DNA of 24,889 nucleotides from IMG/VR virus record IMGVR_UViG_3300037742_000045, positions 1-24,889 of that record, one strand, 5' to 3'. This stretch comes from a virus. Lineage: Duplodnaviria; Caudoviricetes. The notes under the pieces are model-generated. The model searched no databases. It had not been told where the DNA came from and was given only the letters and a program-made list of their open reading frames with translations. Made by a program: the position numbers and the translations under genes. This document shows positions 850 through 7,765 of the stretch, piece after piece (within the stretch, counting starts at the first letter, position 1; every line of letters begins with the position of its first letter).

Positions 850-1083
850 ATGAGAGATAAACAGTTAACACAGCAAAAAGCACAAAGTGAATACGAAATA
901 GATTCGTTAATTCAATTCTTAACCCTACAAAAAAGTAGAGGTGCTACACATTGCCGATGGTGGTGGAGTAAGGATCCAATGTGGGGATTTGAATGGTTCG
1001 AAACATTTAGTAAATTTACTGAAGATGAAATTAAAGCAGCTCAAAAAGCAGCTTTGCAAAAACAAATAGACGAATTAGGATAA
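850..1083 (+). CDS. phage hypothetical protein (77 aa)
   Basis: Starts 2 nt after previous stop; ends directly before terminator. Confidence 0.75.
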   Translation: MRDKQLTQQKAQSEYEIDSLIQFLTLQKSRGATHCRWWWSKDPMWGFEWFETFSKFTEDEIKAAQKAALQKQIDELG

Positions 1084-1084
1084 C

Positions 1085-1121
1085 AAAAAAAAGACGCCAA
1101 TCTAACGAGAAGCGTCTTTTT
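1085..1121. terminator. bidirectional intrinsic terminator at the convergence of + genes and the - strand tRNA/late transcript
   Basis: AAAAAGACGC (1088-1097) / GCGTCTTTTT (1112-1121) inverted repeat with A-tract on the left and T-tract on the right. Confidence 0.8.
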
Positions 1122-1197
1122 AACGTAATAACCAAACTAAAACTATGAAATCGGATAGTGAAGATAATCAAAAATAATTACATACACAAAAAAATAG

Positions 1198-1279
1198 TAC
1201 CGAAGATGGGACTAGAACCCATAAAACTCTAGTTTCTAAGACTAGGCACTCTGCCAATTCGCTTTTATGTCACTTCGGT
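1198..1279 (-). tRNA. trnL: tRNA-Leu(TAG), atypical (expanded D region, short variable loop, T-loop TTCTAGT); possibly degenerate
   Basis: Acceptor ACCGAAG/CTTCGGT + A73; anticodon arm CTAGT-CTTAGAA-ACTAG; T arm ATGGG-TTCTAGT-CCCAT. Confidence 0.75.
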
Positions 1280-1284
1280 GATTG

Positions 1285-1360
1285 AGATAAGTATCGGAAT
1301 CGAACCGATATTAAATTCGTTTTGCAGACGAATACCTTTTCCAATATTGGTTAACTTATC
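1285..1360 (-). tRNA. trnC: tRNA-Cys(GCA)
   Basis: Acceptor GATAAGT/ACTTATC + U73 (Cys identity element); anticodon arm TTCGT-CTGCAAA-ACGAA; T arm ATCGG-TTCGATT-CCGAT. Confidence 0.92.
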
Positions 1361-1366
1361 ATTTTG

Positions 1367-1453
1367 CAGAGAACAAGGGAATCGAACCCTCACCACTTTT
1401 ACATGAAATCGATTAGCAGTCGATCGCAACAACCCAATATTTGCCTATTCTCT
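1367..1453 (-). tRNA. trnS: tRNA-Ser(GCT)
   Basis: Acceptor AGAGAAT/GTTCTCT + G73; anticodon arm ATCGA-CTGCTAA-TCGAT; long variable arm; T arm GAGGG-TTCGATT-CCCTT. Confidence 0.9.
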
Positions 1454-1458
1454 ATTTG

Positions 1459-1545
1459 TGGAGGCAGTAAGACTCGAACTCACACGCCATTACGGCTAAC
1501 TGTTTTCAAGACAGCAACCCATAGACCAACTTGGTTTATACCTCC
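1459..1545 (-). tRNA. trnS: tRNA-Ser(TGA)
   Basis: Acceptor GGAGGTA/TGCCTCC + A73; anticodon arm GCTGT-CTTGAAA-ACAGT; variable arm GCC-GTAAT-GGC; T arm GTGAG-TTCGAGT-CTTAC. Confidence 0.9.
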
Positions 1546-1549
1546 ATTG

Positions 1550-1624
1550 TACTCCTTATGTGATTCGAACACACACCTGTACAGATTTTAAGTCTGATGC
1601 CTCTACCGTTTGGGCTAAAGGAGT
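1550..1624 (-). tRNA. trnL: tRNA-Leu(TAA) with short variable loop
   Basis: Acceptor ACTCCTT/AAGGAGT + A73; D arm GCC..GGC; anticodon arm TCAGA-CTTAAAA-TCTGT; variable ACAGGT; T arm GTGTG-TTCGAAT-CACAT. Confidence 0.9.
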
Positions 1625-1627
1625 TTG

Positions 1628-1700
1628 TGGAAAAGGTTAGATTCGAACTAACAACGCTCAGCTCTTCAAACTGACGCTCTACCAATTTAGCTACATTTCC
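1628..1700 (-). tRNA. trnF: tRNA-Phe(GAA)
   Basis: Acceptor GGAAATG/CTTTTCC (one T-T mismatch) + A73; anticodon arm TCAGT-TTGAAGA-GCTGA; T arm GTTAG-TTCGAAT-CTAAC. Confidence 0.92.
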
Positions 1701-1705
1701 ATTTG

Positions 1706-1786
1706 TGCAAGCGGTAGGATTCGAACCTACATAGAATTAACGACGGGTTTACAATCCGCTGATTTCGCCCACTTACCATCACTCAC
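1706..1786 (-). tRNA. trnY: tRNA-Tyr(GTA), wobble-rich
   Basis: Acceptor GTGAGTG/CGCTTGC (3 G-U pairs) + A73; anticodon arm GCGGA-TTGTAAA-CCCGT; 12-nt variable region; T arm GTAGG-TTCGAAT-CCTAC. Confidence 0.82.
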
Positions 1787-1821
1787 AAAATAAAAAAATC
1801 CCACTCTTTCGAATAGGATTT
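1787..1821 (-). terminator. attenuator (intrinsic terminator) immediately 5' of the tRNA array
   Basis: Minus strand AAATCCTATTC-GAAA-GAGTGGGATTT-TTTTATTTT: 11-bp stem (2 G-U), GNRA loop, U tract ending 1 nt before tRNA-Tyr. Confidence 0.88.
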
Positions 1822-1862
1822 AATTTATATAATTTGAAATTATATCATACCAAATCCCTATC
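1812..1862 (-). promoter_or_regulatory. antiterminator hairpin, mutually exclusive with the 1787-1821 terminator
   Basis: GATAGGGATTTGGT (1862-1849, leader codons 17-21) pairs with ATTAAATCCTATT (1824-1812, terminator 5' arm) with one bulge, closing an inner perfect hairpin ATATAATT-TCA-AATTATAT (1845-1827). Confidence 0.78.
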
Positions 1863-1910
1863 ACCTAAAAGCGAATAACAAAATGATAAATATAAACTTG
1901 TTTTTTTCAT
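1845..1910 (-). CDS. tRNA-array leader (attenuator) peptide MKKTSLYLSFCYSLLGDRDLV
   Basis: ATG AAA AAA ACA AGT TTA TAT TTA TCA TTT TGT TAT TCG CTT TTA GGT GAT AGG GAT TTG GTA TGA; codons 5-15 match the anticodons of the downstream array; lies between promoter and terminator. Confidence 0.85.
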   Translation of the reverse strand: MKKTSLYLSFCYSLLGDRDLV

Positions 1911-1914
1911 ACTG

Positions 1915-1945
1915 CAATACTATAAAATATTTTTCAATCTACAAA
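1915..1945 (-). promoter_or_regulatory. Bacteroidota primary-sigma promoter for leader + tRNA array
   Basis: TTTG (1945-1942) - 19 nt - TAGTATTG (1922-1915), one mismatch to the TTTG-N19-21-TAnnTTTG consensus; predicted start at or near the leader ATG. Confidence 0.7.
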
Positions 1946-2409
1946 GAAAACTTTCGATAAATTTTCCAACACACAAACAAAATCACAATAATTAACGGAA
2001 ACCACCACCATTTTATTAATCCTTCTCGCTCACTTTGCTTTGCTTGGACAGTCTTTTTTGTCTGTTCCTGTTTTTTCGTGTTTGTATTTGTTTTGTCGGT
2101 TGTTTTTTCATTGATTAGTGTATTTGTATTGTTATCAGTTTTTAGTGCCTTATTTCGCTTTATTTTGCGCTGTGTGATTTTCTTGCCAGGTGTTTCAATA
2201 ATCGTTTCTTCAATCACTTCTTTAGTAGAATCGGTAAATACAATTCTAGCTTCTTCTTTTACATTAGAATCAATCACAACATCGTTTTTAATTTCTGTTG
2301 TTTCTTGTTTATTAGCTTCGGTTACTTCCTTTGTCTTTTCGACTTTACGGGCACCGCATCCGAAGCATAAAAATAATAGTAGTATTCCGATTGTGATTTC
2401 TTTTTTCAT
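1939..2409 (-). CDS. unimolecular spanin-like lipoprotein
   Basis: Lipoprotein signal (MKK..ILLLFLCFG-C), T/K/E-rich periplasmic linker, C-terminal TM helix (WWWFPLIIVILFVCW) then basic tail; downstream of endolysin. Confidence 0.75.
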   Translation of the reverse strand: MKKEITIGILLLFLCFGCGARKVEKTKEVTEANKQETTEIKNDVVIDSNVKEEARIVFTDSTKEVIEETIIETPGKKITQRKIKRNKALKTDNNTNTLINEKTTDKTNTNTKKQEQTKKTVQAKQSEREGLIKWWWFPLIIVILFVCWKIYRKFSL

Positions 2410-2522
2410 TTTTTCTCTTGTTTAGGTCTTAGTTTTTCAGGTGGCATTGGAATAGTTTTACTCCCCCTACTTCTTGATGGTTCGTTTATTATGCTTCTGA
2501 GTAGTAATAATTCAAGTATCAT
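2406..2522 (-). CDS. small hypothetical protein, 38 aa (MILELLLLRSIINEPSRSRGSKTIPMPPEKLRPKQEKK), absent from ORF track
   Basis: Fills the gap exactly, with ATGA start/stop overlaps to both neighbours. Confidence 0.65.
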   Translation of the reverse strand: MILELLLLRSIINEPSRSRGSKTIPMPPEKLRPKQEKK

Positions 2523-2749
2523 GACAATAATATTTTAATAGTTTCTTCATTCTGTTTTTGTTGCAGCACATTTCGAACAATTTCGCAATCACTATACATT
2601 TGTTCGGTTTCAAAAACCATTAGTACAATTTCCAAATCACTTATAGTTTTCTCTTTGCACCAATCAATAAACCTCGATTCTGTTTTAATTAATCCACGAA
2701 TCCAAAGCGGGTTAATTAGTTCGTTGTATGCTTTGAAGGAATTTTTCAT
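2519..2749 (-). CDS. hypothetical protein (76 aa)
   Basis: In-operon ORF between endolysin and spanin. Confidence 0.7.
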   Translation of the reverse strand: MKNSFKAYNELINPLWIRGLIKTESRFIDWCKEKTISDLEIVLMVFETEQMYSDCEIVRNVLQQKQNEETIKILLS

Positions 2750-4412: not shown

Positions 4413-5051
4413 TTATACCGCAAGCATTTCTGCCCTTTTCGTTTCTAATAGTGGCAATGTTGCAGCCGGTGACAAGCCCTCTACCATAGCAATAACAATA
4501 TCCGCTTTTTCAAAATCCCAATTTGAAACGTGTGAAGATGCACAGGCCCTAAAGTCTTCAATAAAGGAAATAAATATATCATATAAATTAGACTCCGATT
4601 CATGTTTGTGAATAATGAAATCAGATACTTTTTTCGCCCTGTTTCCAGTTGGCGTAAGTCCATGAGAAACAAGTAACGCATCTAATTCCTCGCCTGTTGG
4701 ATAATCTCGACTAAACTCATCAGTAATAGCTCTAAGCATCGTTGAATTTACTTTGTTGCCTTTAGATACATGATATTTTTCATCACGAAGTTTCTTTATG
4801 CTTTCCAAATCAATTCTACTTCCGTCTTTACCCATAGAAGATATCAATGCCCTTGTCATCAATGCGGTTACATTACTCATAATGCGTTCGGTGTAGATAG
4901 GTGTTTTTTCCGCCGCAATTTCTTCCGGCGTTGGTCCGGTAATTTCAATCACTTCATACGGAAAACCCTGCATCTCCACAGGCACTGATACCAAATCTGG
5001 GAACTCTGCATAAGCTCCATTTCCTAAATTTACTCTAATTTTTGTTGCCAT
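4413..5051 (-). CDS. tail fibre-associated protein (chaperone-like), paralog of 5481-6119
   Basis: 212 aa, colinear with 5481-6119 product; position downstream of fibre gene; function inferred. Confidence 0.6.
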   Translation of the reverse strand: MATKIRVNLGNGAYAEFPDLVSVPVEMQGFPYEVIEITGPTPEEIAAEKTPIYTERIMSNVTALMTRALISSMGKDGSRIDLESIKKLRDEKYHVSKGNKVNSTMLRAITDEFSRDYPTGEELDALLVSHGLTPTGNRAKKVSDFIIHKHESESNLYDIFISFIEDFRACASSHVSNWDFEKADIVIAMVEGLSPAATLPLLETKRAEMLAV

Positions 5052-5070: not shown

Positions 5071-5484
5071 TTAATTTTTCCAAGCACGTTGACCGAACCA
5101 TTTCACGGCCATATATCTTGTTTTGTTATCAATGTTTCTTAATGACGTTTTGCTTCTGCCGCTCAATTTTGAGGACCATATAAGCATTTCGCTATCAGCA
5201 AAATTACGGTTTCCAATTCTATTTTCATACAAATAATCGTGAATTAAGAACGAAAGTTCTGCGTCACTATCTGTCGGAAACAACCACCACAATAGGCGAG
5301 GAACTGAAGCAAGATCCCAAATATATCCTTTTGGGATCACAACAATATATTTATTTGATAATTCTATCTCTAAAGTCTCCAATAAAATATATTGATTGAT
5401 AGTATTTCTACCATAAACTCGTGATTTTTTAACCGGGTTTTCGCGTTTAAGCAAACCAATAATATTTTCAAGGGTAATTATCAT
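5071..5484 (-). CDS. DUF1353-family protein
   Basis: VIPKGYIWDLASVPRLLW...LIHDYLY...ADSEM...YMAVKWFG signature. Confidence 0.85.
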   Translation of the reverse strand: MIITLENIIGLLKRENPVKKSRVYGRNTINQYILLETLEIELSNKYIVVIPKGYIWDLASVPRLLWWLFPTDSDAELSFLIHDYLYENRIGNRNFADSEMLIWSSKLSGRSKTSLRNIDNKTRYMAVKWFGQRAWKN

Positions 5485-6119
5485 ACTGCTAACATTTCGG
5501 ATCTTAAATCGCTTAATTGTTGTTGTGAAATTTGAATAGGCAAATTCTCAGCCATAACGTTTATAATTTCCGCCTTGTCAAATTGCATTTTTTCAATATG
5601 GGTTAAAGCACAAGTCCTGAAATCTTCTATAAGTGAAATGAAAACACCGTAAATATTTGCCCCGTATTCATACCTAAAAACAATGAATTCGCAAAACTTT
5701 TGCAATTTCGTTCCATTGGGCGTGATTCCGTAAGAAACGAGTAGTGCGTCCAAATCTGATTCATTCGGGTAATCTCGGTTCATTTCGTCAGTAATAGTCT
5801 GAACCATCGACGCATTAACCGTTATGCCTTTCGCTACACTATACTTTTCCTGGTAAATCATTTTTTGACTTTCCAAATAACTGCGAGTGCCTTGCTTCCC
5901 CATAGAAGAGGATAAAGCTCTAGTTGTTAAAGAATTCACGTTTCTTGCTATCCTTTCAATATACAAAGGTGTTTTTTCTAACGCTATTTCCTCTAACGTA
6001 GGCTCAACTATTGGGACAACATCGTAAGGATATCCCTGCAATTCAACAGGGATTAATTCTGCATTTGGGAATTCGGCTGTAGCTCCATTACCCATGTTTA
6101 CTCTGACTTTATTTGCCAT
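5481..6119 (-). CDS. tail fibre-associated protein (chaperone-like), paralog of 4413-5051 (start revised to 6119)
   Basis: MANKVRVNMG aligns with MATKIRVNLG of paralog, giving identical 212-aa length; starts 2 nt after fibre stop. Confidence 0.6.
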   Translation of the reverse strand: MANKVRVNMGNGATAEFPNAELIPVELQGYPYDVVPIVEPTLEEIALEKTPLYIERIARNVNSLTTRALSSSMGKQGTRSYLESQKMIYQEKYSVAKGITVNASMVQTITDEMNRDYPNESDLDALLVSYGITPNGTKLQKFCEFIVFRYEYGANIYGVFISLIEDFRTCALTHIEKMQFDKAEIINVMAENLPIQISQQQLSDLRSEMLAV

Positions 6120-6121
6120 AA

Positions 6122-7765
6122 TTAAAAATATTTTAACCAATTAGGTTTAGCTGCCCAAAATCCTAGAGCCTGCAATCCGAAAATATCTGTATTTGAACCA
6201 GGTGTTGTCGCTAATATTGCACGAACCCCCGTTGAATTGTTTGCGCCTGGTGTATTGTATGCAGGGACGTTTGCCGTAATATCTTCATTGTACACAACCG
6301 TGCCGTCTATTTTTTTGACTTTGAAACGAACCCTTTTATTTACTGCGTCATTGTCAATTACTTCAATCATGCAAAGAAGCCATTCAGTTGCCGTTATAGC
6401 CTGTGATGTCCCAGTAGATACAGATGAAGCGTTTGCGCACTTAGCCTGTATTGTCGCCCCTGTAATATTAAACCATGCCCCTATTGTTGTATTTTCAGTC
6501 ACTCCCGAAATAGAAGCCGCGTGAGGCATTCCAACGATGGCCGATAAATTAGTCGTCACAATTGGGTTTATAATTCCAAAGAAAGTAGTCCCTTTAAAGA
6601 ATTGTGCAGGATAACTATTACCATCCGAAAATCTATATCCGCTATTATTAATCCCAGAAGCTGCAATAAACTTAACAAATGAATTACTATAAGGTGTTAT
6701 GTATGCATTTACAAAAGATTGTAAAGTACCGCTGTTTAATTGGCCCCCGGCAAAAGGATAAGCCCCTGATGCCGCTTGATTAAATTTAACCCATACGCCT
6801 ATATGTTGCAATATAGTGTCTGCGTGTTCAACTTCTAAAATATCACTTGAAACCAGAGCAGACTGGCCACTTCCAACCAATATGTTATTTGGAATGATTT
6901 CAAATATTTGCCCTGTATCCGTGATGTTATATTTTACAATTTCATTTTTTGCAATAGCAAAAGAAGCAACTGCGTTTACGTACGTCAAAAATCCAGCAAT
7001 ATCTTGGGTTGCTAAACTTGCAGAGGTTGTTGTCTTTACTGTTACAAATGCTTTGCTTACTTGATTCCCACTGCCTAAAAGACTATCCCCGTCTAGTGTT
7101 TTAATATTTGTACCTGAAACCAATAACGCCTGATAAGTAGTTGCTATATTGTCAATCAAATACTTAGCTTTCCCGAAAGCCTCTAAAATTGTATTTGAAG
7201 ATGTAAACGTTCCAGAAGCCGCAGACAATCCAGCCAAAACGGTTGCTAATATCGAAGCTCCTGAAGTTGTTTGATTGTTGTTAATCCATTTCTCCCAAAC
7301 ACCATCGTATCCGTTATAATGTAAATAATCGCCAACTTTCAAAGAAATATTTCCACTACCTAAATCAACTGTTTCATTTGCGACAGCCTGCCAATAATCA
7401 CCATTTTGACCTACTCCATCTACCAAAGTAATCGTAGCAGAATCATATTTCCCTTTGTAATGCGATGCCGTAGGGTCAAGAGGTGAAATGTTACTAAAGT
7501 CAAAAGCTGGGTAAAATAATTCTTCCAACCGCAACGAAAGCGCAGTTATTGTCACGAAAGTTTCCGGGGTTCCTGCGCCTGTATCGTCGTAAACGGTTAT
7601 ATTCGCTACATTGTAAACCCTTCTTTTCGATTGGCCTTGCTCAACGATTTGAAATGTTTCAATGTCTTCAGAAAAATAAAATTGCGACAATATAAATTCA
7701 CCCAGGTCGCTGTCAATATGCAGCCAGGTATAATTGCTCTTTTTTCTTATTTGTAATGTTGCCAT
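6122..7765 (-). CDS. tail fibre / receptor-binding protein
   Basis: YKGKYD..GQNGDYW..VGDYLHYNG..WEK and LVSGTNIKTLDGDSLLGSG fibre motifs; beta-rich C-terminal domain; synteny. Confidence 0.75.
   Translation of the reverse strand: MATLQIRKKSNYTWLHIDSDLGEFILSQFYFSEDIETFQIVEQGQSKRRVYNVANITVYDDTGAGTPETFVTITALSLRLEELFYPAFDFSNISPLDPTASHYKGKYDSATITLVDGVGQNGDYWQAVANETVDLGSGNISLKVGDYLHYNGYDGVWEKWINNNQTTSGASILATVLAGLSAASGTFTSSNTILEAFGKAKYLIDNIATTYQALLVSGTNIKTLDGDSLLGSGNQVSKAFVTVKTTTSASLATQDIAGFLTYVNAVASFAIAKNEIVKYNITDTGQIFEIIPNNILVGSGQSALVSSDILEVEHADTILQHIGVWVKFNQAASGAYPFAGGQLNSGTLQSFVNAYITPYSNSFVKFIAASGINNSGYRFSDGNSYPAQFFKGTTFFGIINPIVTTNLSAIVGMPHAASISGVTENTTIGAWFNITGATIQAKCANASSVSTGTSQAITATEWLLCMIEVIDNDAVNKRVRFKVKKIDGTVVYNEDITANVPAYNTPGANNSTGVRAILATTPGSNTDIFGLQALGFWAAKPNWLKYF

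Follow-up and report, generated by a model that had tools for sequence, protein, structure and literature searches.

In the window (the whole 24,889-nt stretch of DNA analysed, which is an entire viral record), seven tRNA genes lie behind a short leader open reading frame (ORF) and a terminator of the intrinsic type. Leader and terminator probably form a ribosome-coupled transcription attenuator, in which slow decoding of the leader would let transcription enter the tRNA genes; we give this reading a probability of about 0.83. The element is real, conserved and co-evolving and, to judge from comparison of sequences, probably works like a multivalent leader-peptide attenuator. Its parts and their order, the alternative folds predicted for it and a covariation of codons and anticodons across a large phage family were established as described below.

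Attenuator control is a mechanism known from amino-acid operons. No description of a leader-peptide attenuator on tRNA genes was found in the full-text literature, a body that mostly leaves out subscription papers.

The leader and the tRNA genes of the window

Genes for terminase, portal, capsid, tape measure and endolysin mark the window as a tailed-phage block for structure and lysis. The capsid protein had its nearest match in Olleya phage Harreka_1 (50% identity), and 11 of its 14 matches were phages of Flavobacterium, Olleya or Cellulophaga; by sequence similarity the host is probably a member of the Flavobacteriia. In the tail region two similar-looking ORFs, possibly paralogues, lie either side of a 137-aa ORF (4413-5051 and 5481-6140).

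The features of the locus are listed in Table 1. The sequence-only reading had described, on the minus strand, a promoter, an ORF, a terminator and seven tRNA genes in this order, and the unit was found as described: the ORF gives the translation shown, and the stem and U-tract of the terminator are present.

Table 1. Features of the leader-tRNA locus in the window.
Feature	Position	Strand	Remarks
Predicted lipoprotein gene	1939-2409	-	End of lysis/structural block, upstream of leader; stop overlaps promoter
Bacteroidota sigma-A-type promoter	1915-1945	-	TTTG 1945-1942, 19-nt spacer, -7 box TAGTATTG 1922-1915
Leader ORF	1845-1910	-	21 codons; translation MKKTSLYLSFCYSLLGDRDLV, then stop
Control-codon block (segment 1)	1866-1898	-	Codons 5-15, all array-readable; predicted pairing with segment 2 if untranslated
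Segment 2	1849-1858	-	Mimics terminator 3' arm; partners: segment 1 or terminator 5' arm
Predicted antiterminator hairpin (2:3)	1810-1863	-	-13.9 kcal/mol; z -3.4, limits chosen post hoc
Intrinsic terminator (3:4) and U-tract	1787-1821	-	Stem 1821-1796; z -4.4; stops right ahead of first tRNA
tRNA-Tyr(GTA)	1705-1786	-	tRNA call and Rfam
tRNA-Phe(GAA)	1627-1700	-	tRNA call and Rfam; anticodon loop U32 and G37
tRNA-Leu(TAA)	1549-1624	-	tRNA call and Rfam; variable arm short
tRNA-Ser(TGA)	1458-1545	-	tRNA call and Rfam
tRNA-Ser(GCT)	1366-1453	-	tRNA call and Rfam
tRNA-Cys(GCA)	1284-1360	-	tRNA call and Rfam
tRNA-Leu(TAG), atypical	1198-1279	-	D-arm enlarged, short variable arm, A37, T-loop atypical
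Bidirectional terminator-like hairpin	1085-1121		Separates tRNA operon from convergent plus-strand ORFs; z -4.8

The promoter held in part. Its TTTG element and its -7 box are both present, the box matching TAnnTTTG with one mismatch, but the motif alone is not significant: three matches occur in the window and 12 of 100 shuffles reach three. The promoter is kept in nine aligned homologues. Cultured phages that were found via their tRNAs have 12 leaders, and 9 of these show the 4-nt promoter spacing of the window. A sigma-70 promoter scan was unsuited to this Bacteroidota-type promoter. The TAnnTTTG box is placed at -12 to -5 in the available part of PMC9723704, and the first transcribed nucleotide in the window would therefore be the A of the leader ATG. 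By the position of the box the leader transcript is probably leaderless, a class that makes up 5.5% of mRNAs in the same part of that study.

No terminator-like site was found between the lipoprotein gene and the leader promoter, and a lysis transcript from upstream may also enter the leader. At the other end of the locus, the loop of the bidirectional terminator (1098-1111) appears inverted relative to about 4995-5030 of L001, the nearest relative.

All seven minus-strand tRNA genes are present with the anticodons claimed earlier. Six exceed the Rfam cut-off; Leu-TAG scored 22.4 bits against a cut-off of 29. The start of this last gene, formerly put at 1263, was corrected to 1279; the gene so delimited has a perfect 7-bp acceptor stem. 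Short variable arms are unusual for bacterial tRNA-Leu, and both Leu tRNAs of the window have them.

As the sequence-only reading had stated, all eleven leader codons 5-15 can be read by the array, ten of them without superwobble, and every tRNA is represented. The array reads 18 codons, which make up 24% of the codons in 19 window genes, and the chance of an 11-codon run at this usage is 0.242^11 = 1.7e-7, the limits of the block having been chosen after the fact for the window and fixed beforehand for the family tests. When the 33 nt of the control block were shuffled, 56 of 200,000 shuffles were readable throughout and 4 of 200,000 also sampled all seven tRNAs. The sole Ser-GCT codon of the window leader is codon 5, at the edge of the block, where the family match is weak. 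Reading of the leader CTT by Leu-TAG needs superwobble, and the genome used as proxy host has Leu-GAG, the normal reader of CTT; the one-to-one coverage proposed earlier thus stands for codon boxes but not for exact anticodons.

Codon content of leaders and tRNA content of arrays

The leader family was searched for with a codon-blind pattern (promoter box, ATG, U-tract and T-loop), which yielded 67 matches in 66 viral loci, 61 of the 67 heading a tRNA array. To these were added the window, L001, a single cultured phage and the units from a looser scan that covered 22 of 64 parts, and genome-scan loci and single-tRNA units were excluded; where two promoters were found, the nearer was used. The resulting main set comprises 91 units, each with two or more tRNAs, and 63 different leader peptides; promoter spacing and U-tract were imposed by the search pattern. 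The leader ORF is 15-26 codons long in all 63, a length range reached by 19% of shuffles.

Among the 63 leaders, a fraction of 0.70 of codons 5-15 could be read by the leader's own array, against 0.34 with arrays permuted (0 of 20,000 permutations). The signal is absent past codon 15 (0.176 from codon 16 onward vs 0.170 permuted), and frames +1 and +2 gave 0.20 and 0.23. The match was strongest at codons 7-14, with 0.76-0.94 at codons 9-14, and weak at codons 5 and 15 (0.35 at the latter); it persisted with one representative per cluster at 38, 34 and 12 clusters. The leader peptide is unconstrained in sequence apart from the content of the tRNAs that follow, and C-rich and purine-rich leaders match the other arrays that they precede. 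The comparative check suggested by the sequence-only reading, whether leader codons co-vary with array anticodons, was therefore strongly positive, both in these fractions and in the close-pair swaps described below.

The match is one-way: a tRNA implies its codon, and the reverse is looser. For 51 untruncated arrays, which encode 270 tRNA species, the leader holds a cognate codon for 256 of these (permuted mean 128, maximum 189). Leader codons for which no tRNA was called concern Leu in 12, Ser in 11, Cys in 6 and Phe in 5 of the 51 arrays, and are due partly to ARAGORN misses and partly to gene losses.

Similar arrays that differ in single tRNAs were also compared. For 21 Pro-first arrays, the Glu codon follows tRNA-Glu in 20 of 21 (p=3e-5). 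Counted as both, codon only, tRNA only and neither, the 24 Ser/Tyr arrays gave 9, 2, 0 and 13 for Phe, 9, 4, 0 and 11 for Cys, and 7, 1, 0 and 16 for Trp, and permutation within this class never reached the observed match (0 of 20,000). When the control block was left out of the tree, 6 gains or losses of tRNA-Glu were required (shuffled mean 7), more than one inherited event would give; this tree is poorly resolved, with 2 well-supported branches that force only 2 changes.

Codon swaps were found in close pairs. The leaders of L142 and L453 are identical at 62 of 66 nt, and GAA in one is replaced by CAA in the other, in step with the presence or absence of tRNA-Glu; L090 and L096 differ by TTA AGT against TTT TGT, a change that goes with Phe and Cys tRNAs. 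The TAT of the window leader is replaced by GAT in L001, which encodes tRNA-Asp; in L001 both Ser genes and Cys are missing, yet its leader keeps Ser and Cys codons. The first tRNA gene of L001 is Tyr-like by eye only, and an exact tRNA-Phe pattern matched the L001 contig only. The L001 array ends at 4844-4921 in a Leu-TAA/Leu-TAG chimera joined at the T-arm and lacking an acceptor stem, the product either of array contraction by recombination between tRNA genes or of misassembly.

The leaders track isoacceptor boxes. Arg control codons are CGN in 19 of 19 cases in the 22 arrays with Arg-ACG or Arg-TCG (CGN is 41% in window genes), and the remaining 29 arrays have no Arg control codon at all. 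For the 13 arrays with Leu-TAG only, 17 of 20 Leu codons belong to the CTN box (background 28%). Arrays are sorted by anticodon base 36, with 26 of 51 A36-dominant and 23 G36-dominant (purity 0.73 vs 0.58), two classes that we take to be MiaA and TrmD substrates. In terms of the first codon base, the arrays, among them those of L384 3391-6777, form UNN sets and CNN sets (plus Glu), each with its own leader, and a purine-start set with its own leader is found in phi38:1, Calle_1 and Panino. This sorting could be explained by modification class, nuclease class or the pairing needs of segment 1.

The match was replicated with 115 loci from a metagenome scan that covered 18 of 64 parts. Their 42 units included 21 distinct leaders that were new and stood before two or more tRNAs. 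In these 21, the readable fraction was 0.52 vs 0.26 permuted (0 of 20,000) and 82 of 94 tRNA species were covered; 3 of the 21 units did not fit.

Six of six cultured Flavobacteriia phages (phi10:1, phi19:1, phi38:1, Calle_1, Panino and Gundel_1), reached by blastn essentially via their tRNA genes, carry matched leaders. These number 12 in total, Calle_1 nearly repeating phi38:1 and one Gundel_1 leader peptide being already in the codon-blind pattern set. Cellulophaga phi38:1 has three leaders, one per sub-array, for example MNVTLLHQEPLEQLRLP ahead of Pro, Glu, Gln, His, Leu and Arg tRNAs. Six non-coding RNAs of this phage are reported in an RNA-seq study (Table S4 of PMC5335546, available part).

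The second leader of Gundel_1 (L385 5371-6517) is separated from its tRNAs by a gene for an HNH endonuclease, inside the predicted attenuated unit. An uncultured jumbo phage (L434 3231-3375) has a 29-codon Leu/Ser/Cys leader with a sigma-70-like -10 box, followed by a terminator and then an ORF ahead of Leu, Ser and Cys tRNAs, so that the switch may also act on a protein gene. On inspection, no clear leader was seen in Acinetobacter phage AM24, and 80 loci of endolysin homologues contained no tRNA arrays.

Among 120 loci from a scan of bacterial genomes (27 of 64 parts) there were 11 promoter-tRNA units, and just two of them, L210 and L261, fitted when inspected by eye. Both (L210 is from a MAG titled Flavipsychrobacter) are bacterial-genome contigs with matched leaders before one to three tRNAs; they were kept out of the statistics. 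With two of 120 loci fitting in this partial scan, the element is therefore mainly viral.

The predicted RNA switch

We infer that the leader is translated and that its translation decides between two folds. Host RNA polymerase would begin at the leader AUG. When tRNA is plentiful, the ribosome would reach the stop codon and cover segment 2, 3:4 would form and transcription would end; an untranslated leader would by default adopt 1:2 plus 3:4. A pause anywhere at codons about 6-14 would free segment 2, which would capture the terminator 5' arm and give read-through, so that one missing tRNA would suffice (an OR gate). The new tRNAs would relieve the pause, which amounts to negative feedback.

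The minimum free energy fold of the full window leader was 1:2 plus the terminator (z -3.9). Taken singly, the 2:3 hairpin is predicted to be about as stable as the terminator (-13.9 vs -13.4 kcal/mol). In the model, 2:3 can form with the ribosome masked at codons up to about 13 and is lost from codon 15. The segment-2 duplex alone is not significant in the window (p=0.195). The modelled 1:2 helix of the window is weak, and its naked transcript, cut at the 5' arm, favours 2:3 already (0.77, vs 0.81 with a stalled ribosome). In an equilibrium model of the window, the terminator wins after stalls from codon 11 onward as soon as its full hairpin has been transcribed; the switch would therefore need kinetic trapping. 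The value of 0.09 obtained for the fold with the ribosome at the stop codon is nearly forced by masking and was excluded as evidence. A consensus fold of nine homologues showed 1:2 and 3:4, with 2:3 absent; both-side changes in this consensus are partly register artefacts and were given little weight.

A terminator was found in all 63 distinct leaders (median -14.4 kcal/mol, the U-tract being imposed by the search pattern), at a median of 24 nt from the stop codon (10th to 90th percentile, 20-28 nt). In none of the 63 does the best upstream partner of the terminator 5' arm begin before nt 40 (median start 52, quartiles 49-53), and the pairing reaches p<=0.05 in 36 of 63. A ribosome covers 10-13 nt past the codon that it reads, and the partner site lies about one such footprint beyond codon 14, where codon matching ends. 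The 1:2 protector helix had z<-1.64 in 36 of 63 leaders. Capture of the 5' arm rose from 0.40 in the naked transcript to 0.71 with a ribosome at codon 10, and was higher in 57 of 63. An antiterminator, mutually exclusive with the terminator and located 3' of the control codons in the geometry of an attenuator, is thus predicted. It was absent from the sequence-only reading, whose interpretation as a leader-peptide attenuator is supported by the comparative test.

The weak 1:2 and 2:3 statistics in the window, together with the lack of 2:3 in the consensus fold, leave some room for a translated and codon-matched leader that acts via transcript stability, Rho, processing or its peptide, the hairpin being a fixed terminator or processing signal. 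We consider this improbable: the partner of the terminator arm lies just beyond the control block in 63 of 63 leaders, where codon matching stops, and the peptide is constrained by nothing save the tRNAs that follow. Sensing of tRNA independently of the ribosome, in the manner of a T-box, or protein-mediated antitermination is very unlikely. A terminator/antiterminator pair before translation-related genes is indeed the T-box layout, but there is no T-box match in Rfam at E<=1 in positions 1000-2600, and the signal is an in-frame run of several codons in an ORF of fixed length, lost in other frames. That a T-rich ORF arose by chance ahead of a terminator that merely ends the lysis operon is extremely unlikely, even though the lysis block enters the site with no other terminator-like site and the promoter motif alone is not significant; composition-preserving shuffles, frame controls and replication speak against it, and C-rich or purine-rich leaders match other arrays. 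Chance as the source of the codon match was refuted by frame controls, shuffles, replication and close-pair swaps.

What the switch would sense

For the attenuator, we lean slightly towards a loss of functional host tRNA in infection, by cleavage through defence nucleases or by undermodification, as the trigger. It is favoured because extra tRNA would cure a shortage of tRNA, not of amino acids, and because phage anticodon loops often differ from host-type loops. G001 served as proxy host for the comparison of loops; 29 tRNA species were recovered from it, Ser-TGA not being among them. Of the six comparable anticodon loops of the window, four differed. Family-wide, the Pro, His, Gln, Arg-ACG and Leu-TAG tRNAs have A37 in 99 of 144 phage genes where the proxy host has G37, and G37 takes the place of the proxy host's A37 in 12 of 19 phage tRNA-Phe genes. 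These differences fit nuclease evasion, as proposed in the available part of PMC10264068, and equally fit independence from position-37 modification.

The same switch could have another purpose, general tRNA-supply homeostasis under amino-acid or nutrient limitation, high demand late in infection or a shortage of modification. If the element is an attenuator, this is a real if tentative possibility, and it competes with the trigger, not with the mechanism. A leader that senses pauses does not distinguish between their causes (his leader, PMC4046918, available part), and homeostasis is also in keeping with the sorting of arrays by base 36 and with the A37 of phage G36 tRNAs. Against this, amino-acid starvation would not be cured by more tRNA, the loop changes have also been proposed for nuclease evasion (PMC10264068, available part), and rescue from a retron effector by a phage tRNA-Tyr depends on promoter strength in the accessible part of PMC11555353. 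Returning to tRNA loss as the trigger, we see an even chance that Bacteroidota phages possess a widespread modular tRNA sensor, with one leader per sub-array that samples the codons which this sub-array reads and turns it on when any of them is decoded slowly. Such a leader would be rewritten codon by codon as tRNAs come and go, and the main job of the sensor would be to detect and, on demand, repair the destruction of tRNA by host anti-phage systems.

Among amino-acid-operon attenuators the thr and ilvGMEDA leaders are multivalent, and pheM-pheST is also leader-attenuated. With this group, represented by the his leader of Salmonella (PMC4046918, available part), the phage element shares a short ORF, control codons, a putative default 1:2 pairing (weak in the window), a predicted antiterminator, a terminator and read-through as the predicted result of stalling. 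It differs in that it would control tRNA genes where the known leaders control enzymes or a synthetase; in that the window leader samples five amino acids and seven tRNA species about once each, not in runs; in that it tracks isoacceptor boxes on a probably leaderless transcript; and in that it is phage-encoded, with the leader rewritten as the array changes. Clues of such leaders ahead of amino-acid operons are reported for Flavobacterium (PMC9723704, available part). The amino-acid leader families (trp, his, leu, thr and phe) gave no Rfam match at E<=1, and the downstream genes are tRNAs. By sequence, the element lies outside every described leader family.

In the T-box riboswitch, too, tRNA status sets the choice between terminator and antiterminator, but one tRNA is sensed by one specifier codon without translation; no T-box stem I with specifier loop and no T-box bulge was matched by Rfam in window positions 1000-2600.

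A phage tRNA reportedly counters PARIS. The tRNA-Tyr of T5-like phages replaces the host tRNA cleaved by retron Eco7/Ec78 PtuAB, and its expression level matters (PMC11555353, available part); the anticodon-loop hypothesis likewise concerns phage loops that differ from host-type loops (PMC10264068, available part). Unlike the phage leaders, the counter-defence tRNAs rely on a strong promoter or on sequence changes, and no sensing step is described in the available parts of these two papers, in whose texts the string 'attenuat' has 0 occurrences. The trn operon of Anabaena PCC 7120 is also made up of accessory tRNA genes, which are off by default and come on under translational stress (PMC8421152, available part), but its repression acts at initiation and is not codon-specific (PMC8421152 and, for TrcR, PMC10272220, available parts); 'attenuat', 'leader' and 'terminator' have 0 occurrences in the PMC8421152 text.

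The purpose of phage tRNAs is an old open question, in which support of codon usage stands against replacement of destroyed host tRNAs. If the present reading is true, the sensor would reveal what the phage measures, the insult that opens the switch would be what phage tRNAs are for, tRNA genes under direct feedback would join amino-acid operons as targets of attenuation, and the element would be a natural multi-input reporter for tRNA-targeting defences. Where degenerate tRNA genes escape the tRNA finders, the leaders can in addition predict what an array contains.

At about 1090 nt past the leader start, L089, L101, L116 and L137 each have a putative tRNA with anticodon TTA, which is ochre-suppressor-like (ARAGORN, relaxed threshold).
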